Source of the DNA: Parcubacteria group bacterium RIFCSPHIGHO2_02_FULL_40_12
GTDB taxonomy: Bacteria; Patescibacteriota; Minisyncoccia; 2-02-FULL-40-12
Direction of reading: 5' to 3'
NCBI GenBank assembly: GCA_001824375.1
Contig: MHXE01000001.1
Location: forward strand, 1-41,770
DNA length: 41,770 bases
In this document: in pieces, positions 3,365 through 18,126 of the stretch
How the letters are laid out: each line of letters opens with the position of its first letter
Position numbering within the stretch: the first letter of the stretch is position 1
The notes under the pieces: generated by a model
Seen by the model: only the letters and a program-made list of their open reading frames with translations
Told to the model about the DNA's origin: nothing
Databases searched by the model: none
Translations under genes and position numbers: made by a program

Positions 3365-3395
3365 CAAATTGAATTTTGCTAAAACGGGTATTTTA

Positions 3396-3479
3396 GGCAA
3401 GCGTATCGGCTTGCCGTAAAAATGCCCAGGCGTTTGCCCATAAAGGCAAACATATACTCGCAAAGCGAGTATATTTAAT
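3396..3479 (+). repeat. hairpin-repeat family 1, copy A (three consecutive stem-loops)
   Basis: Stems GGCAAGC/GCTTGCC, GTTTGCC/GGCAAAC and ATATACTCGC/GCGAGTATAT. The reverse complement matches 16994-17121. Confidence 0.8.
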
Positions 3480-3539
3480 ACACCGCATAAAATTTGATAT
3501 TGCGAGCACAAGCTTTCTATTGTATCTTTTGAATAAGTG

Positions 3540-3881
3540 ATGCTTCTTAAAGAAAAACTTCAACAGGATTTAAATTCGGCCCTGAAAAATCGTGAGAATT
3601 TAAAACGCATTGTTTTAGGTTCCCTGCTCTCCGCCATCCATAACAAAGAAATAGAAAAAAGAACCGTTGAAACAAAGAAAATGCCAAGCGCCAACGTTGA
3701 AGAATTGGAAAAAGCCTCGAAAATGGCCGACGAAGAAATAATTAAAGTCATCAAGTCTGAAATAAAAAAAAGAAAACAGGCGATTGAGCTTTACGAAAAA
3801 GGCGAACGGAAAGAACTGGCTCAAAAAGAAAAAGATGAAATAGAAATTTTGCTTAACTACGCGCCGGAACTGAAACAATAA
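3540..3881 (+). CDS. yqeY: GatB/YqeY domain protein
   Basis: LKEKLQQDLNSALKNRE...EEIIKVIKSEIKKRKQAIELYEKGERKELAQKEKDEIEIL. An ATG at 3540 directly follows the GTG at 3537. Confidence 0.75.
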   Translation: MLLKEKLQQDLNSALKNRENLKRIVLGSLLSAIHNKEIEKRTVETKKMPSANVEELEKASKMADEEIIKVIKSEIKKRKQAIELYEKGERKELAQKEKDEIEILLNYAPELKQ

Positions 3882-3882
3882 A

Positions 3883-5118
3883 ATGAAAAAAAACATTGTT
3901 GCCGGAATAGACATCGGCAACTCGGCAGTCAAGACAATCATTGCTGAATTTAAGGAAGGCTCAGCAAGGCCCCAGATTTTAGGCACCGGCTTAAGCTCAT
4001 CTAACGGCTTAAGGCGCGGAGTAGTTATTGATATGACCGAAGCGGTTGAAGACTTAAAAAGATCAGTTGCTCAAGCAGAAAATTCTGCCGGAATCAGAAT
4101 CAAAAAAGCTTATGCCTCAATTTCCGGCCCTCATATCAGAAGCCAGGTATCCCGCGGGGTAATTGCTGTATCGCGGGCCGACAACGAAATATCGGAAAAC
4201 GACATCCAAAGAGTTTTAGAGGCGGCTTCGACCATAAGCTTGCCGCCGAACCGCGAAATAATCCACCGAATCCCAAAAAAATTCATTGTTGACGGCCAGG
4301 AGTTTTTCAAAAATCCGGTGGGAATGACCGGAATCCGTTTGGAGGCGGATGTAATAATAGTTGATGCTCTAACACCATATCTAAAAAGCTTGGCCAAAGT
4401 AATAAACGAAAATGAAATCGAGGTAACTGAATTTATCTATTCCCCTCTCGCTTCGGCTAAAGCCGTTTTAAATAAAAAAACTAGAGAACATGGCGCGGCT
4501 TCTTTGGATTTTGGCGGAGGCCTTTGCCATTTAGCTGTTTTTGACGAAGGCGAGCTCATCCATACCGCTTCTTTGCCGCTTGGCTCAAAAAACATAACTA
4601 ATGACTTGGCTATTGCCATAAAGACATCTTTGGATAATGCCGAAATGGTAAAACTTGAATATGGCTTTGTGGGGGATACTTCGGGCGGTAAAAAAGAGAA
4701 TATCGATTTATCTAAAATAACCGATGAAGAAATGATTATTCCGAAAAAAATTATAGGCGAAGTTATAAACGACCGGACTACAGAAATAGTTGATATGGTC
4801 TCCGGCGAACTTAAAAAAATAAATCGCCTTAATTTACTGCCGGGCGGCATCTTGCTTTGCGGCGGCGGAGCAAAGCTTACCGGTTTTACGGAATACATCA
4901 AAGAAAAACTAAAACTACCGGCCAAAAAATTTTCTTCTTACGATTTTGAAGGCGTAGTCAATAAAATCGACGACCCGACTTTCGCCTGCGCCGCTGGACT
5001 GGTGCTTTGGGGATTTGAAAAAGAATTCAGCCAAAAAGAAAAAGGAATTTTTGAAAATTTCGGTTCGCATAAGACTTTCAAAAAACTCAAAGACTGGTTT
5101 AGGATATTTTTGCCCTAA
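3883..5118 (+). CDS. ftsA: cell division protein FtsA
   Basis: Actin-like ATPase motifs GIDIGNSAVK, LDFGGG and CGGGAKLTG. It sits immediately upstream of ftsZ. Confidence 0.9.
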   Translation: MKKNIVAGIDIGNSAVKTIIAEFKEGSARPQILGTGLSSSNGLRRGVVIDMTEAVEDLKRSVAQAENSAGIRIKKAYASISGPHIRSQVSRGVIAVSRADNEISENDIQRVLEAASTISLPPNREIIHRIPKKFIVDGQEFFKNPVGMTGIRLEADVIIVDALTPYLKSLAKVINENEIEVTEFIYSPLASAKAVLNKKTREHGAASLDFGGGLCHLAVFDEGELIHTASLPLGSKNITNDLAIAIKTSLDNAEMVKLEYGFVGDTSGGKKENIDLSKITDEEMIIPKKIIGEVINDRTTEIVDMVSGELKKINRLNLLPGGILLCGGGAKLTGFTEYIKEKLKLPAKKFSSYDFEGVVNKIDDPTFACAAGLVLWGFEKEFSQKEKGIFENFGSHKTFKKLKDWFRIFLP

Positions 5119-5224
5119 ATCAAACTCATTTCCAAAGTATTGACTCCCATCTCCCCCTATGATAAGTAGTATCCAATTAAGTTTTCGGATTTAAACCGTT
5201 TAACTAATCAGCTAATCAACTAAA

Positions 5225-6346
5225 ATGGCTCAAATTAAACCTCCATTTGAAACTTTCGCCAGAATAAAAGTTGTCGGAGTCGGCGGAAGTGGCGGAAAAG
5301 CAATCCAGAGAATGATGACCGAAAAAATTCACGGGGTTGAATTCATCGGGATAAATACCGATGCCCAAGATCTCCATGCTTCCAATGCCCCGATAAAAAT
5401 CCACATCGGCAAAAATTTAACCAAAGGCCTGGGCGCCGGGATGAATCCTGAAGTCGGCCGCCAAGCCGCCGAAGAAACTCGGGACGAAATCCAAGATGCA
5501 ATTAAGGGCTCGGATATGGTTTTCATAACTTTCGGTTTGGGAGGCGGAACTGGTACCGGAGCCGGCCCGATTATCGCTGAAGTGGCAAAAAATGCCGGCA
5601 TTCTTACTGTCGGCGTTGTTACTAAGCCTTTTTCTTTTGAAGGAGCCCAAAGAGCAAGACTGGCTGAAGAAGGTTGGAATAAACTAAAAGACAGAGTTGA
5701 CGCCTTGATCAGTATCCCAAATGACAGACTGCTTTCAATAATTGAACGTAAGACCGGCTTAATTGACGCTTTTAAAATAGTTGACGATGTTTTGCGCCAA
5801 GGCGTTCAAGGAATCTCTGATTTGATTACTGTGCCGGGAGTGGTAAATGTTGATTTCGCCGATGTTCAAGCCATTATGCAAAATGCCGGTTCTGCTTTAA
5901 TGGGAATCGGCCGGGCCACCGGCGAAGATCGAGCCGTCGAAGCAGCCAAAGCCGCCATTAACTCTCCCCTGCTTGAAGTTTCGATTGATGGAGCCAAAGG
6001 AGTTTTATTTAATGTTACCGGCGGACCGGATCTCACAATGTCTGAAATCAATGACGCCGCAAAAATAATTACTGAATCGATTGATCCAGAAGCAAGAGTA
6101 ATTTTCGGCGCCACCCAAGACAACAACCTCAAAAAAGGCGAGATAAAAGTAACTGTCATTGCCACAGGGTTTTCAAGCGAGTCCCAATTTGGCAAAAAAG
6201 TTTCAAGTTTCGGGATATTCAACAAAGAAACCAATGGAGAACCAAGAGAACAAAGAGAACAAAACAAAAAAAAATTTATTGATGATCTGGAAAAAGAAGA
6301 AGACCAATACGATATCCCCGCGTTTATAAGGAAGAAGATGAAATGA
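5225..6346 (+). CDS. ftsZ: cell division GTPase FtsZ
   Basis: Tubulin signature GGGTGTGAGP, plus NTDAQDL and a C-terminal DIPAFIRKK peptide. Confidence 0.97.
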   Translation: MAQIKPPFETFARIKVVGVGGSGGKAIQRMMTEKIHGVEFIGINTDAQDLHASNAPIKIHIGKNLTKGLGAGMNPEVGRQAAEETRDEIQDAIKGSDMVFITFGLGGGTGTGAGPIIAEVAKNAGILTVGVVTKPFSFEGAQRARLAEEGWNKLKDRVDALISIPNDRLLSIIERKTGLIDAFKIVDDVLRQGVQGISDLITVPGVVNVDFADVQAIMQNAGSALMGIGRATGEDRAVEAAKAAINSPLLEVSIDGAKGVLFNVTGGPDLTMSEINDAAKIITESIDPEARVIFGATQDNNLKKGEIKVTVIATGFSSESQFGKKVSSFGIFNKETNGEPREQREQNKKKFIDDLEKEEDQYDIPAFIRKKMK

Positions 6347-14556: not shown

Positions 14557-15618
14557 TTATATTATAAATTTTTGGATTTTATCTTTAAAAATTTCTTTAT
14601 CAAACTTTTTTACGCTTTCTTTTATTTTTTTTGAATCGAATTCTTTGTGATTAAAACTATTTATTGCACCGAATAAAGAACCTGCTGTTTGTTCATCAAA
14701 AAATAATCCCGTTTCTCCTTCTTCAACTGTCTCCGGTGCTCCGCCGCCTCGATAAGCAATCACTGGACGGCCCGAAGCCATTGCTTCAAGGAGCGCAATG
14801 CCGAAATCCTCTTCCTGGGGGAATATCAACGCCTTGCAGCCGGCATAGTATTTTGGCAGTTCGCTTTCTGAAACCCGGCCAAGAAATTTTACATTATTCA
14901 CTTTTAACTTTTGGCTTTTAGCTTTTAGCTTTTTAAGTTCCGGCCCGTCGCCGATGATTAGTAATTTTTCATCCGGCAATTTGCTGAATGCCTCAATCGC
15001 AATATCAAAACGCTTATACGGCACCATCCGGCCAACCATCAAAAAATACTCTTTGGGCTTTTTTGAAACATAAAATTTCACCGTCTCAAGAGGCGGATAA
15101 ATCACTTTTGATTCGCGGCCATAATATTTTTTAATCCTTTGCCGGACATTTTCAGAATCGGCAATGAAGTAATTAGGCCTCTGGGCAGCCTGGTAATCCC
15201 AGATTCTCAAATAAGCCAGAAGAAGTTGGGAGAAGGGCTTTAAGGGCAGTCCGGCGTCATGCCAAAGATAACGGGTCGGAGTCAGGCAATAGCAGATATG
15301 CTTCGTGGCTGGTTTGGTAATTATCCCTTTGCCGAATGAATGCGAAACGGAAATAACCAAGTCAAAATCGGATAAATCGAACTGCTCAATCGCCAAAGGC
15401 ATCAGCCAAATTAAACTCCGAAAAAACTTTTTGGCGCCCGGGATTTTCTGTAAAAAAGAAGTGCGAATTTTTCTGCCTTTGAAAACTCCGCCAGTCGCTT
15501 TTTCGTCATAGACCAAAGTATAAACCGGCGCCGACGGAAACATCTCGCAAAGCGCCGCCAAAACCCTCTCCCCACCGCCTAATTGAGTCAGATAATCATG
15601 GACTAAGGCGATTTTCAT
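14557..15618 (-). CDS. glycosyltransferase family 4 (GT-B, retaining)
   Basis: MKIALVHDYLTQLGGGERV N-terminus. E-x7-E region EDFGIALLEAMASGRPVIAYRGGGAPETV. Confidence 0.85.
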   Translation of the reverse strand: MKIALVHDYLTQLGGGERVLAALCEMFPSAPVYTLVYDEKATGGVFKGRKIRTSFLQKIPGAKKFFRSLIWLMPLAIEQFDLSDFDLVISVSHSFGKGIITKPATKHICYCLTPTRYLWHDAGLPLKPFSQLLLAYLRIWDYQAAQRPNYFIADSENVRQRIKKYYGRESKVIYPPLETVKFYVSKKPKEYFLMVGRMVPYKRFDIAIEAFSKLPDEKLLIIGDGPELKKLKAKSQKLKVNNVKFLGRVSESELPKYYAGCKALIFPQEEDFGIALLEAMASGRPVIAYRGGGAPETVEEGETGLFFDEQTAGSLFGAINSFNHKEFDSKKIKESVKKFDKEIFKDKIQKFII

Positions 15619-16260
15619 ATAATTTTATCTTCTAAAACTCTATTCCTTAATTTATAAGTATTACCCCATTTCATCAATCCCAGATAAGAATTAAGAGTTT
15701 CCATAGTTTGTGATTTTCGTAACTGCCTCAACATTCTTCTCTTAGTAGTAGTCCTCAAAACTCTATAATAATGGAAATTAATCCAGCCCAGAAAATCAAC
15801 GCCCGAAGCCAGAGTTTTAATGAAAATCTTGTCTGGGTGGATTTTTAATTTTAATCTCTCGGATAAAAACTTCTTAATCGGCTCAATCTGATTTTCCAGC
15901 CAATTCTTATCATCCGATAAAATCACAAAATCATCAGCATATCTGATGTAACATCTGACTCTTAACTTATGGTTCCGGCTTACTTTGCAACCAAATGAAC
16001 AAAAACGATTTAACGCTTTATGAGTTCCTTTATCATTCCGACAGGAGAAAGAATCACTGATAAATGTTCTATCAAAGAAAGGATACAAGATTCTGTAAAT
16101 GGCGTGGTGTAATAACCTGTCTTTGACACTGGCTTTATGGATGTTTCTGGGTTTGGGGTCGTTTATCTTAAAAGCCTTGTAGCCGCCATGGTTATATTGG
16201 AATTCCTGAACATCTTTTTTCTTCCTTTTGCCTCTCAAATAATTTTTGAAAAAGAAAACG
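15615..16260 (-). pseudogene. DGR-type reverse transcriptase relic (N-terminus and motifs 3/4 deleted in frame; YADD and thumb retained)
   Basis: RGKRKKKDV, INDPKPRNIHKASVKDRLLHHAIY, SDSFSCRNDKGTHKAL, YIRYADDFVILS and GVDFLGW match DGR RTs. There is no motif with the first catalytic Asp and no (I/L)GxxxSQ motif. There is no ATG in frame. The track ORF continues to 16361 only by reading through the upstream terminator. Confidence 0.7.
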
Positions 16261-16286
16261 GGTCGGTTGAAAACTCCAACCGACCC
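16249..16286 (-). terminator. intrinsic terminator of the high-GC 156-aa gene
   Basis: 10-bp stem GGGTCGGTTG/CAACCGACCC with a 7-nt loop, followed by GTTTTCTTTTTC on the minus strand. Confidence 0.7.
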
Positions 16287-16324
16287 GCAGGATCCAAGGA
16301 CCAAAAGTCCAAGAATCCAGGTGC

Positions 16325-16795
16325 CTATACTTGCGAGACGACCCGGCGGCCCTGACCCCACCCATTCGGACCCGCCACCGAGCGAGCGAACACGAACCAG
16401 CCGCCGCTGCCGACGAACCAGAACGCGCGCACGGCCCAGACCCCATTTCTACCGTTAAGGTAGAAAATGAACCACTCCGAGCTCTCGCGGTTTTCCGAGA
16501 GAAACGCGCAGAGCTGGGATACGGAAATCTCGGCCTTGTCGCCGAGCTCAGCCAGGATGGAAGCATCAAGCGATACTTCCTCGAGCTTGCGGACGGCAAG
16601 CTCGATCTCCTTGGTCGCTGGCAAGTCCAGACCATAGAACTCGGCCTGAAAGATATCGTTAGCCCACACCACCCCGGCCTCCTCGAAGTATTCCTCGGAG
16701 GTGGTCACGGCTGGCTGGGCGGATACGCGCACCGTGCGAAGGAAAGTGAGAATTGACTTTACCACCTCCGATGCCTGCCGACTGGTCATGACCAT
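16325..16795 (-). CDS. hypothetical 156-aa protein on a high-GC island; the C-terminus resembles a C-type-lectin-fold DGR variable region
   Basis: AAGGAG lies 7 nt upstream of the ATG and a terminator lies downstream. Amino-acid composition is balanced, unlike the overlapping frames. The C-terminus reads NGVWAVRAFWFVGSGGWFVFARSVAGPNGWGQGRRVV. Confidence 0.65.
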   Translation of the reverse strand: MVMTSRQASEVVKSILTFLRTVRVSAQPAVTTSEEYFEEAGVVWANDIFQAEFYGLDLPATKEIELAVRKLEEVSLDASILAELGDKAEISVSQLCAFLSENRESSEWFIFYLNGRNGVWAVRAFWFVGSGGWFVFARSVAGPNGWGQGRRVVSQV

Positions 16796-16856
16796 AACTC
16801 GTCTCCTTTTCTGACTTGTCCCTTTCGGACATGTCCGCTAAATGACTACCTTCATG

Positions 16857-16993: not shown

Positions 16994-17121
16994 ATATACC
17001 GGCTATGCCGGTATATGTTTGCCTTTCTGGGCAAACGCCTACAGCGATTCCGCAACGAGCCGCAAGCGGCTCGGAGAAACCTTCGACGAGCGGGCATTTT
17101 TACGGTTAGCCGGTGCGCTAC
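16994..17121 (-). repeat. hairpin-repeat family 1, copy B (interrupted by a family-2 element)
   Basis: With 17041-17091 removed, about 61 nt align to the reverse complement of 3396-3479 with 6 mismatches. Four of the six are compensatory within one stem. Confidence 0.8.
17041..17091 (+). repeat. hairpin-repeat family 2, copy 1 (nested in family-1 copy B)
   Basis: ACAGCGATTCCGCA-[CGAGCCGC aa GCGGCTCG]-..AACCTTCGACGAGC. Both 14-nt ends are identical to the copy at 32861-32913. Confidence 0.8.
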
Positions 17122-17130
17122 AAGGTACTC

Positions 17131-17744: not shown

Positions 17745-18126
17745 GTTCTTTGGTAAATCGGGCAGTCGCTCTTTGCTAACATTTTAGCAGAGGGAGGAAA
17801 GTCCGAACACCTACTTTGTTCACAAAGTTAAAAAGGTAGCGGGTAACGCCCGTCGCGAGTAATCGTAGAGGTGCGAACAGAGATGTCTTTGAACGAAAGT
17901 TCAAAGAAAGCAAACCCAAAGATTTGATTCTATCAAATTGAGCTTAGCTCGGTACAATGGGTTAAAAGTATCGGAGTGAAACAGCTAAATCCTTACCCAG
18001 GTGCAAGGCTGTGTCCTTCGGAGCTTTACGCGAAGGAGGAAATGCCGCTTGAGGCCAATGACAACATTGGTCCCAGATAAATGACTGCACAAATACAGAA
18101 TTCGGCTTACAGATTTACCAAGGAAC
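17745..18126 (+). ncRNA. rnpB: RNase P RNA (bacterial type)
   Basis: P4 strands GAGGAAAGTCCG and ACAGAATTCGGCTTA. P1 pairing GTTCTTTGGTAAATC / GATTTACCAAGGAAC. Confidence 0.92.

Follow-up and report, generated by a model that had tools for sequence, protein, structure and literature searches.

A probable recent pseudogene of a DGR reverse transcriptase between a retained target gene and a glycosyltransferase gene in Parcubacteria

The 41,770-nt stretch of Parcubacteria DNA analyzed here (the window; contig MHXE01000001.1) carries on its minus strand a GC-rich gene that belongs to a DGR target family, a hairpin, an ORF with remnants of a reverse transcriptase (RT), and a GT4 glycosyltransferase gene (Table 1). 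The ORF (15615..16361, minus strand) encodes 248 aa from a GTG start and contains about 210 codons of a DGR-type RT, so that about 63% of the RT ORF is left; RT homology by tblastn runs from 16250 to 15618. Further upstream, no stop codon happens to interrupt the frame, which crosses the T-run, the hairpins and 37 nt at the end of the target gene before it reaches the GTG. Three choices of start by annotators yield proteins of 207, 229 or 248 aa, and there is no SD sequence. ATG starts 40 of the 43 genes in the window, whereas the first ATG in the relic frame comes only at codon 210. A previous reading of the DNA (the sequence-only reading) had stated that an in-frame ATG is lacking; this holds up to codon 210, and three ATGs follow at codons 210, 220 and 230.

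Table 1. Features of the relic locus, with positions in the window. L008 is an orthologous locus with an intact DGR; L072 carries the same target family within a complete DGR. A1, alignment of the relic with ten intact Patescibacteria RTs; A3, DNA alignment.
Feature	Position	Strand	Details
GT4 glycosyltransferase gene	14557..15618	-	Pfam Glycos_transf_1, 7.5e-39
RT relic block 3, motif C (YIRYADDF) to thumb, TGA stop	15615..15971	-	L008 RT residues 217-333
Conserved RT 3' end, about 55-60 nt	15619..15680	-	contains TTGATG-N15-TATAAA
Deletion junction 2	15971..15972	-	237 nt (79 codons) gone between KVSRN and HKL; A3, A1
RT relic block 2, fingers region	15972..16198	-	L008 RT residues 62-137; phmmer, alignments, tblastn
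Deletion junction 1	16197..16199	-	54 nt (18 codons) gone after EFQ; A3 columns 175-228, A1
RT relic block 1 (K-NY-LRGKRKKKDVQEFQ)	16199..16250	-	L008 RT residues 27-43; alignments, tblastn
Post-VR hairpin and T-run, intrinsic terminator of target gene	16249..16288	-	GC-rich, 14-bp stem at 16288-16258
Non-RT part of called ORF	16251..16361	-	unrelated to RT N-termini (A1)
DGR target gene, 156 aa	16325..16795	-	Patescibacteria family of about 180-200 aa
Variable region (VR) of target	16327..16439	-	aligns with L072 VR/TR pair (A4; blastn E = 2e-5)

The closest homologs of the relic are RTs inside complete DGR cassettes, in line with descent from the DGR clade and with the DGR-type identity proposed in the sequence-only reading. 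The RT of L008 (P0002) is 78% identical to the relic, and in the retained blocks the identity to RTs of Patescibacteria/CPR DGRs amounts to 65-79%; by tblastn, L008 RT residues 216-332 match positions 15971-15621 with 75% identity. The second block is marked by YNHGGYKAF...DPKPRNI...KDRLLHHAIY...DSFSCRNDKGTHKAL...KVSRN. Pfam RVT_1 (PF00078) aligns to ORF residues 136-193 with 38.8 bits, above the gathering cut-off of 29.6 bits but matched only at profile positions 147-203 of 205; positions 8-146 stay unmatched, whereas the intact homolog P0004 covers positions 8-203 at 96 bits. A 209-aa query comprising the ORF from residue 40 (NYLRGKR...) was matched by phmmer to the bRT of Bordetella phage BPP-1 (8ub7) in two collinear blocks (E = 6.5e-22), query residues 13-78 corresponding to bRT 54-119 and 91-199 to bRT 202-315, which leaves about 70 residues of bRT unmatched by the relic. 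The two proteins share homologous fingers, motif C (YxDD) and thumb, whereas the relic lacks an equivalent of bRT residues 120-201 or so (with the motif A Asp and I/LGxxxSQ) and of the N-terminal 40 or so residues, and has neither Avd nor TR alongside. The similarity to group II intron RT/maturases is confined to the general palm and thumb: TIGR04416, the best NCBIfam match, scores 69 bits, far short of the cut-off of 300, there is no maturase/X domain, endonuclease domain or intron RNA, and the nearest relatives lie in DGR cassettes, so that we rejected this assignment. Rfam searches at gathering thresholds and with permissive E-values over 15.5-17.8 kb revealed no RNA family at the locus. 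Elsewhere in the window, Rfam matched RNase P and a tRNA only.

Relative to intact relatives, the relic lacks the N-terminal 26 aa (A1, A3) and two internal segments. At junction 1, the stretch LNLMDNI..LKSFK after the GKR box (L008 RT residues 44-61) is missing, and the imperfect direct repeats AATTCCA and AATTTCA flank the gap. The loss at junction 2 (L008 RT residues 138-216; AACA microhomology) shows up in A3 as a gap at columns 456-692 in the window sequence only. It removed motif A with its catalytic Asp (CDIRKFF), while YADD of motif C is kept, and motif B, the DGR-diagnostic (I/L)GxxxSQ, which reads LPLGNLTSQ in all ten intact relatives. The sequence-only reading had estimated the three missing parts at about 25, 15 and 70 aa, within a few residues of the 26, 18 and 79 aa mapped here; profile and pairwise alignments, the check it had proposed for the loss of motifs A and B, show both to be absent, and both internal gaps, at 54 and 237 nt, are multiples of three and in frame, as claimed. 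All deletion junctions display microhomology of 4-8 nt. The left end of the large deletion that took the RT start lies directly after the post-VR hairpin; in comparison with L008, about 790 nt are gone, comprising the spacer, TR, avd and RT codons 1-26.

The GC-rich ORF upstream, which the sequence-only reading had passed over as a DGR target with a VR, has a GC content of 55-70% versus about 40% for the genome. In its family, the C-terminal 38 or so residues vary in a codon-wise pattern (alignment A2); the scaffold of the window VR reads GGGCCGTGAACGCGAACTGGAACGT... Close to the N-terminus of the window copy, at about 16765, an in-frame loss of 114 nt has removed about 38 aa. As in complete DGRs, the target with its C-terminal VR is followed by a GC-rich hairpin. 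Together with a smaller hairpin, it forms a 91-nt stretch (16330-16240) with a folding energy of -39.2 kcal/mol (z = -6.1), and homologous hairpins lie behind the targets of L008 and of the related locus L014. The terminator that had been noticed just upstream of the relic is this stem with its subsequent T-run. For the target protein, a confident fold model was obtained, with no PDB or BFVD match and no functional assignment.

Neither of the partners of an active DGR was found. No TR was detected within the window by an ungapped search on the same strand for 60-nt stretches with at most 15 mismatches, related TRs matched only the VR itself when compared to the window by blastn, and a repeat listing around the locus contained chance repeats only. 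Avd was likewise not detected in the window by tblastn with three Avd proteins of related cassettes (best E = 0.46). The same genome bins harbor a second, intact DGR (L011-L013, RT P0032), where 19 of 21 TR/VR mismatches in L012 fall on TR adenines; we considered diversification in trans by this element and rejected it, as the L012 TR (4202-4333) cannot be aligned with the window VR. Scanning the genome collection with a degenerate VR scaffold gave 119 matching stretches, nearly all of those listed being chance matches in high-GC genomes; L072 was recovered, and no TR for this genome was found.

The sequence-only reading had suggested inspecting related genomes for an intact RT, Avd and TR at the same site, and such loci exist. 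L008 has the gene order TIM-PGK-DHHA1-RNaseH-Bac_transf-target-TR-bAvd-RT-GT4-DUF4012-LepA, with the VR at 5023-5153, the TR at 5433-5563, bAvd on the minus strand and an intact RT of 333 aa; TR adenines account for 27 of the 34 mismatches in its 131-nt TR/VR pair. L009, with the order TR-hairpin-avd-intact RT-GT4, occupies the same chromosomal site as L008 and the window relic. The most decayed locus is L014, where the target (73% identical to that of the window) and the hairpin are followed by the last 24 RT codons and GT4. The window falls between these states, having kept target, hairpin and RT relic and lost TR, avd and the RT start. A metagenome scan for GT4 covered 80 loci, of which only the short contig L137 is close enough for an upstream RT; no RT accompanies the GT4 orthologs of 50-58% identity. 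The DGR insertion is thus clade-specific, and the scan added no further decay stages.

The two decayed loci raise the question of whether a single event, in an ancestor shared by the window and L014 cassettes, eliminated TR, avd and the RT 5' end, with conservation of the relic ever since implying constraint. The loci share the target family and the left boundary of the deletion after the hairpin T-run, Bac_transf and GT4 of the window are slightly closer to those of L014 than to those of L008, and a similar 7-mer is found at both junctions (AGTTATT in L014, AATTATT in the window). The 7-mer is weak evidence because it is AT-rich and matched with a mismatch, and by the flanking housekeeping genes PGK, DHHA1, DUF4012 and LepA the window is closer to L008, with its intact DGR, than to L014; given the closeness of Bac_transf and GT4 to L014, the cassette region may have a history of its own. 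Differences between the VRs of the window and L014 affect 17 of 26 TR-adenine columns versus 10 of 87 others (p = 1.6e-7). Mutagenic homing therefore continued beyond their split, which requires an active TR and RT at that time and makes a single, old loss highly improbable. This pattern and the flanking genes are evidence for independent and late DGR losses in the window and L014; judged by the junctions alone, a shared first deletion would retain some probability.

In our view, the ORF is very probably a quite recent pseudogene of the RT of a chromosomal DGR and not a repurposed protein. The ancestral site, in a small Parcubacteria clade, would have held the DGR between a Bac_transf sugar transferase gene and GT4, in the order target with C-terminal VR, hairpin, TR, bAvd on the opposite strand, and RT. 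A microhomology-mediated deletion of about 790 nt would then have removed the spacer, TR, avd, the RT promoter region and the start, reaching into codon 26, while further deletions took 54 nt in the fingers and 237 nt with catalytic motif A and DGR-specific motif B; slippage or illegitimate recombination could account for these events. That TR and avd went together with the RT 5' end was not part of the sequence-only reading. VR/TR recombination was rejected as the origin of the large deletion, as there is no avd behind the VR and the deletion starts after the hairpin. As a consequence, the element would yield no more cDNA and the VR of the retained target would be frozen.

The sequence-only reading had left two options, a very recent decay product or an RT-derived protein or leader co-opted within the glycan operon. 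In the latter scenario, a truncated RT product would still be made, from a non-ATG start or by read-through, and maintained under selection. Its role might be that of a leader whose translation brings ribosomes to the GT4 start, or of a catalytically dead fingers/thumb scaffold that binds TR RNA or Avd of the second DGR and modulates the latter; the intact DGR in the same bins could supply such partners. On this view, constraint and not youth would explain why the deletions are in frame and the conserved residues unchanged. Three observations had seemed to favor this idea, namely the 248 codons kept open in AT-rich DNA despite two internal deletions, the conserved columns without substitutions, and the ATGA at 15615-15618, where, as stated in that reading, the TGA of the relic overlaps the ATG of GT4. 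The same overlap with GT4 exists in L008 and L009, which have an intact RT, and in L014; it was thus inherited and is uninformative on co-option, and the persistence of GT4 behind only 24 RT codons in L014 means that coupling to a long ORF is not needed. The open frame, which had been regarded as unexpected for a relic, is in fact to be expected while point changes are few, since the length of each internal deletion is divisible by three and the relic has not existed long enough to collect point mutations. The in-frame nature of both RT deletions would arise by chance in about 1 of 9 cases and, with the third in-frame deletion in the target gene, the joint chance if unselected is about 1/27, which is mildly unusual and counts against a pseudogene.

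As to substitutions, the relic has mismatches at 0 of 65 columns conserved to at least 98% and at 1 of 78 conserved to at least 95%, compared with medians of 0 and 1 for 109 intact peers in the same test. Purifying selection would also leave conserved columns unchanged, and recency and constraint are inseparable on this count because every relic copy is identical: the relic population consists of 15 contigs of at least 99.9% identity with no SNP in relic or VR. A diverged copy of the relic architecture was not found among 8000 RT matches from 5.8 billion proteins, and hence there is no sign of persistence. Further arguments against a functional product come from the missing early ATG and SD sequence and the discordant annotated starts, from the deletion of the RT promoter and start region behind a terminator hairpin that precedes the relic, and from the palm core, which after loss of 79 aa would hardly adopt a stable RT-like fold. 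On balance, co-option appears improbable, its original hints having lost their weight, and the recent-decay option stands. Most likely, the relic has no transcription from its own promoter and no translation product.

One part of the RT gene may nevertheless be under selection. Within the 3' end, 28 of 30 columns are invariant, including 9 of 10 third positions versus 1-7 of 10 in other 30-nt blocks, and L014 has retained precisely this conserved end. The terminal 55 nt or so are probably retained because they carry expression signals for GT4, that is, they would be kept by selection as DNA. The element TTGATG-N15-TATAAA therein was picked out by eye and might serve as such a signal; a sigma-70 consensus scan flagged no promoter for GT4 or the relic. 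The extreme 3' end of the RT gene thus appears to survive through a second role in expressing the gene that follows.

An abrupt GC shift, from about 37% to 55-70% at 16250-16800, could raise the suspicion that the deletions or the junction between GC-rich and AT-rich DNA stem from misassembly or a chimeric contig. Yet the 15 contigs derive from several samples and assemblers (ENA, Logan, JGI, NCBI MAGs) and agree to 99.9-100% across the junctions, and GC-rich targets beside AT-rich RTs are the norm in intact relatives, leaving an artefact a negligible prospect.

The relic is best read as a very recent pseudogene of an already known kind. CPR DGRs have been discussed before (PMC5758913), and those of Patescibacteria/CPR considered here (L008, L012, L072) share the layout target(VR)-TR-bAvd(opposite strand)-RT, L072 also having the post-VR hairpin as in the window. 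In isolates of Treponema denticola, RT and TR were lost and target genes kept (PMC4891356). The window resembles these isolates in that the diversifying machinery is lost and the target retained; it differs in having a recognizable RT fragment in mid-decay, and in that intact, half-decayed and almost fully deleted states occur at one orthologous site. One site in a narrow Parcubacteria clade thereby displays an intact DGR, a half-deleted RT and a 24-codon stub. The target was kept at every stage of decay, suggesting that DGRs are gained and lost quickly in these tiny genomes while the diversified proteins become fixed. What might be misread as a new RT-derived protein, a start/stop-coupled RT-like ORF in a glycan cluster, would be a fresh pseudogene, and replacing the MAG annotation "hypothetical protein" by a pseudogene flag is warranted.

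The open reading frame that a sequence-only reading had described as a degenerate reverse transcriptase (RT) of a diversity-generating retroelement (DGR) is present as claimed, and its RT identity is clear from residue 39 to the end. Among solved structures it best matches bRT, the DGR enzyme of a Bordetella phage (8ub7; E = 6.5e-22); the alignment falls into two collinear blocks, between which bRT residues ~120-201 are unmatched. A database search returned Patescibacteria RTs of 300-360 aa by the thousands, with 65-79% identity to the relic in the common blocks. Pfam RVT_1 scored 38.8 bits, above the cut-off, at profile positions 147-203 of 205 only (motif C onward), versus positions 8-203 in the intact homolog P0004. 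The lesions (Table) were placed with a protein alignment including ten intact Patescibacteria RTs (A1) and an RT DNA alignment (A3), in the numbering of the RT from L008, a same-site locus of a relative. CDIRKFF, with the motif A aspartate, and the DGR-diagnostic LPLGNLTSQ both fall within the 237-nt gap. The sequence-only map of missing parts was correct within a few residues, and motifs A and B are absent by RVT_1, bRT, A1 and A3 alike. Short repeats at the junctions, AATT(C/T)CA at the 54-nt and AACA at the 237-nt gap, would fit an origin by replication slippage or illegitimate recombination. The first 111 nt (5') of the called ORF do not derive from the RT; there the frame runs through the hairpin and the target gene end (A1).

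Table. Coordinates and composition of the DGR-related features
Locus	Feature	Position	Details
Window	Relic ORF	15615..16361 (-)	248 aa, GTG start
Window	Relic lesion (A1, A3)	L008 RT residues 1-26	absent
Window	Relic lesion (A1, A3)	L008 RT residues 44-61	absent, 54 nt
Window	Relic lesion (A1, A3)	L008 RT residues 138-216	absent, 237 nt
Window	Target ORF	16325..16795 (-)	156 aa, just upstream of relic, same strand; 55-70% GC vs ~40% GC genome
Window	Hairpin + T-run	16288-16249 (-)	14-bp GC hairpin, 3' of target ORF
L008	Complete cassette	VR 5023-5153; TR 5433-5563	target with VR, hairpin, TR, bAvd (minus strand), intact 333-aa RT
L009	Order		TR, hairpin, avd, intact RT, then GT4
L014	Order		target (73% identical to window's), hairpin, last 24 RT codons only (YLGLMKWGNTYKLRSRALEDKVI*), GT4
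L072	Complete DGR	VR 1880-1992; TR 2288-2400	avd on opposite strand, 329-aa RT
L012	Second DGR	3366-5727; VR 3793-3924; TR 4202-4333	185-aa target, bAvd, 363-aa RT
L008, L009, window	TR/VR/target types compared	4606-5563; 150-300; 16325-16795	

The ORF upstream of the relic is, as judged from its sequence, a DGR target gene with its variable region (VR) at about 16327-16439, because its family also sits inside a complete DGR of a Yanofskybacteria genome (L072) and its 3' end aligns with the VR/template repeat (TR) pair there. The family is confined to Patescibacteria (66 hits), gave no Pfam or NCBIfam match, and varies codon by codon over its C-terminal ~38 residues on the fixed scaffold WAVxAxW....GGWxVxAxSV..P..W..G.RVVS (target-family alignment, A2). 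Neither a TR nor the accessory gene avd was found within the window. P0194, a read-derived variant, combines an identical VR with a target N-terminus lacking the deletion, so that the 114-nt in-frame target deletion, too, is recent and postdates the fixing of the VR. Known DGR variable proteins have a C-type-lectin fold. AlphaFold modeled the 156-aa target protein confidently (pLDDT 91.6, pTM 0.85), with the VR on the last three beta-strands; Foldseek found no match to this model in PDB or BFVD (best E 0.4-0.5, TM 0.27 or lower), and a C-type-lectin fold is not recognisably present in the prediction. The GC-rich target gene carries a strong AAAGGAG Shine-Dalgarno (SD) motif, an exception among window genes that fits a foreign origin of the cassette. 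On a Hainich groundwater contig, rpoC and ftsK flank the gene of a 196-aa homolog (P0130; L015 6001-6591). The surrounding 6 kb contain no RT, and the homolog counts as a further orphan or remote target of this family.

Copies of the relic protein on 15 contigs, which come from several samples and assemblers and include Rifle aquifer MAGs (Parcubacteria group bacterium RIFCSP...), are identical. The window shares the gene order TIM-PGK-DHHA1-RNaseH-(RNase P RNA)-Bac_transf-[...]-GT4-DUF4012-LepA-RNR with three related genomes (L008, L009, L014), and the bracketed site exists in three states: intact element, half-deleted (window) and near-completely deleted (L014). The check for an intact RT, Avd and TR at the orthologous locus was thus borne out in L008, where 27 of 34 TR/VR mismatches lie at TR adenines, and also in L009. 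A stretch of ~790 nt that separates the post-VR hairpin from RT codon 27 in L008 is gone from the window; with it went the spacer, TR, avd, the region between avd and RT, and the start of the RT. No RT lies upstream of GT4 orthologs further off (77 loci at 50-58% identity), so that only a narrow clade has the DGR at this site. The orthologous same-site RTs serve unrelated TR/VR/target types, one in L008 (...WLGGGFGRDYRLASPGK), a third in L009 and another in the window and L014; target and TR seem to be swapped as one module, irrespective of the RT. Intact RT genes of the clade open with TTG, followed by 9-12 consecutive G that encode GGG/GGGG (L008 5935-5950, L009 664-680). The N-terminal GGG is conserved in P0003, P0004, P0007, P0011 and P0017, which suggests that the G tract is general, and slippage at this start-codon homopolymer could render RT expression phase-variable.

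The relic might be old and constrained, rather than recent, if its first deletion were common to the window and L014, which have the same target type and a deletion boundary directly after the hairpin. However, their VR differences fall on 17 of 26 related-TR adenine columns versus 10 of 87 others (Fisher p = 1.6e-7); this bias is the signature of mutagenic homing, hence one or both lineages still had a functioning TR and RT at their disposal after the split. PGK, DHHA1, DUF4012 and LepA of the window are likewise nearer L008, with its intact DGR, than L014. Parallel and recent losses are therefore the best reading, with residual doubt since Bac_transf and GT4 of the window are slightly nearer L014. 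The database search found no diverged relic copy, and there are no SNPs in relic or VR, all relic contigs being at least 99.9% identical. On an alignment of 109 intact RTs, the relic mismatches 0 of 65 columns conserved to at least 98% and 1 of 78 to at least 95%, equal to the medians of intact peers. The 65 codons hold ~150 non-synonymous sites, and with none of these changed we estimate that neutral divergence after inactivation has stayed below roughly 2%. Stop codons are not expected in so short a time either, and the open frame, initially deemed surprising for a neutral relic, loses its weight; two deletions would both be in frame by chance in about 1 of 9 cases.

Nor does the ATGA overlap with GT4 point to co-option, since it also occurs in L008, L009 and L014 and was inherited from the intact state; in L014, GT4 does well behind a mere 24-codon RT stub. 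The ~55 nt that end the RT ORF show 93% invariance across window, L008 and L009, with 9/10 third codon positions invariant at the 3' end versus 1-7/10 in other 30-nt blocks. This piece is exactly what L014 retains and includes TTGATG-N15-TATAAA, an element that a consensus scan did not flag; the conserved DNA has probably survived as a GT4 promoter or leader. An in-frame ATG is lacking before codon 210 only, not throughout, and GTG/TTG candidates have no SD; annotators made three different start choices. For comparison, 40 of 43 window genes start with ATG, following an A/T-rich leader, and few have an SD (7/43 long ORFs, even by a loose definition). We thus favor recent decay over co-option, and consider it very improbable that selection maintains an expressed fragment.

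By descent the relic is, on homology, a DGR RT; as a DGR enzyme it lacks all the defining elements, motif A, motif B, TR and Avd. Treponema denticola isolates have similarly lost the DGR core while keeping target genes (PMC4891356), and in large surveys DGR activity is regarded as differing between lineages (PMC8144416). DGR decay as such is ordinary; we found no description in the literature of this relic or of a comparable same-site series of stages.

A second, intact DGR adjoins rpsP in the same MAG (locus-tag prefix A2913) and two sister bins (L011/L012/L013: GCA_001824315.1, GCA_001825525.1, GCA_001824405.1), so that the organism is not wholly without targeted hypermutation. Its RT is 65% identical to the relic and 19 of its 21 TR/VR mismatches are at adenines. 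Because its TR and the window VR do not align, this DGR cannot re-diversify the window target by the known mechanism, for which reason this VR would most likely be frozen. Downstream of rpsP, two LAGLIDADG_2 ORFs lie close together (L011 7803-9997, L012 7193-9387); these are possible homing endonucleases of rRNA introns, an arrangement common in CPR genomes.

Directly after the Bac_transf stop (17131), the window carries a ~110-nt, ~60% GC patch of three consecutive hairpins (16995-17130, minus strand), absent from L008 and without Rfam match. L014 has an inserted pair of small ORFs at the same spot, the second product RelE/ParE-like by eye; the spot looks like an insertion hotspot. A class A RNase P RNA (141 bits; 17750-18125, plus strand) lies between the RNase H and sugar transferase genes, opposite in strand to its neighbours.
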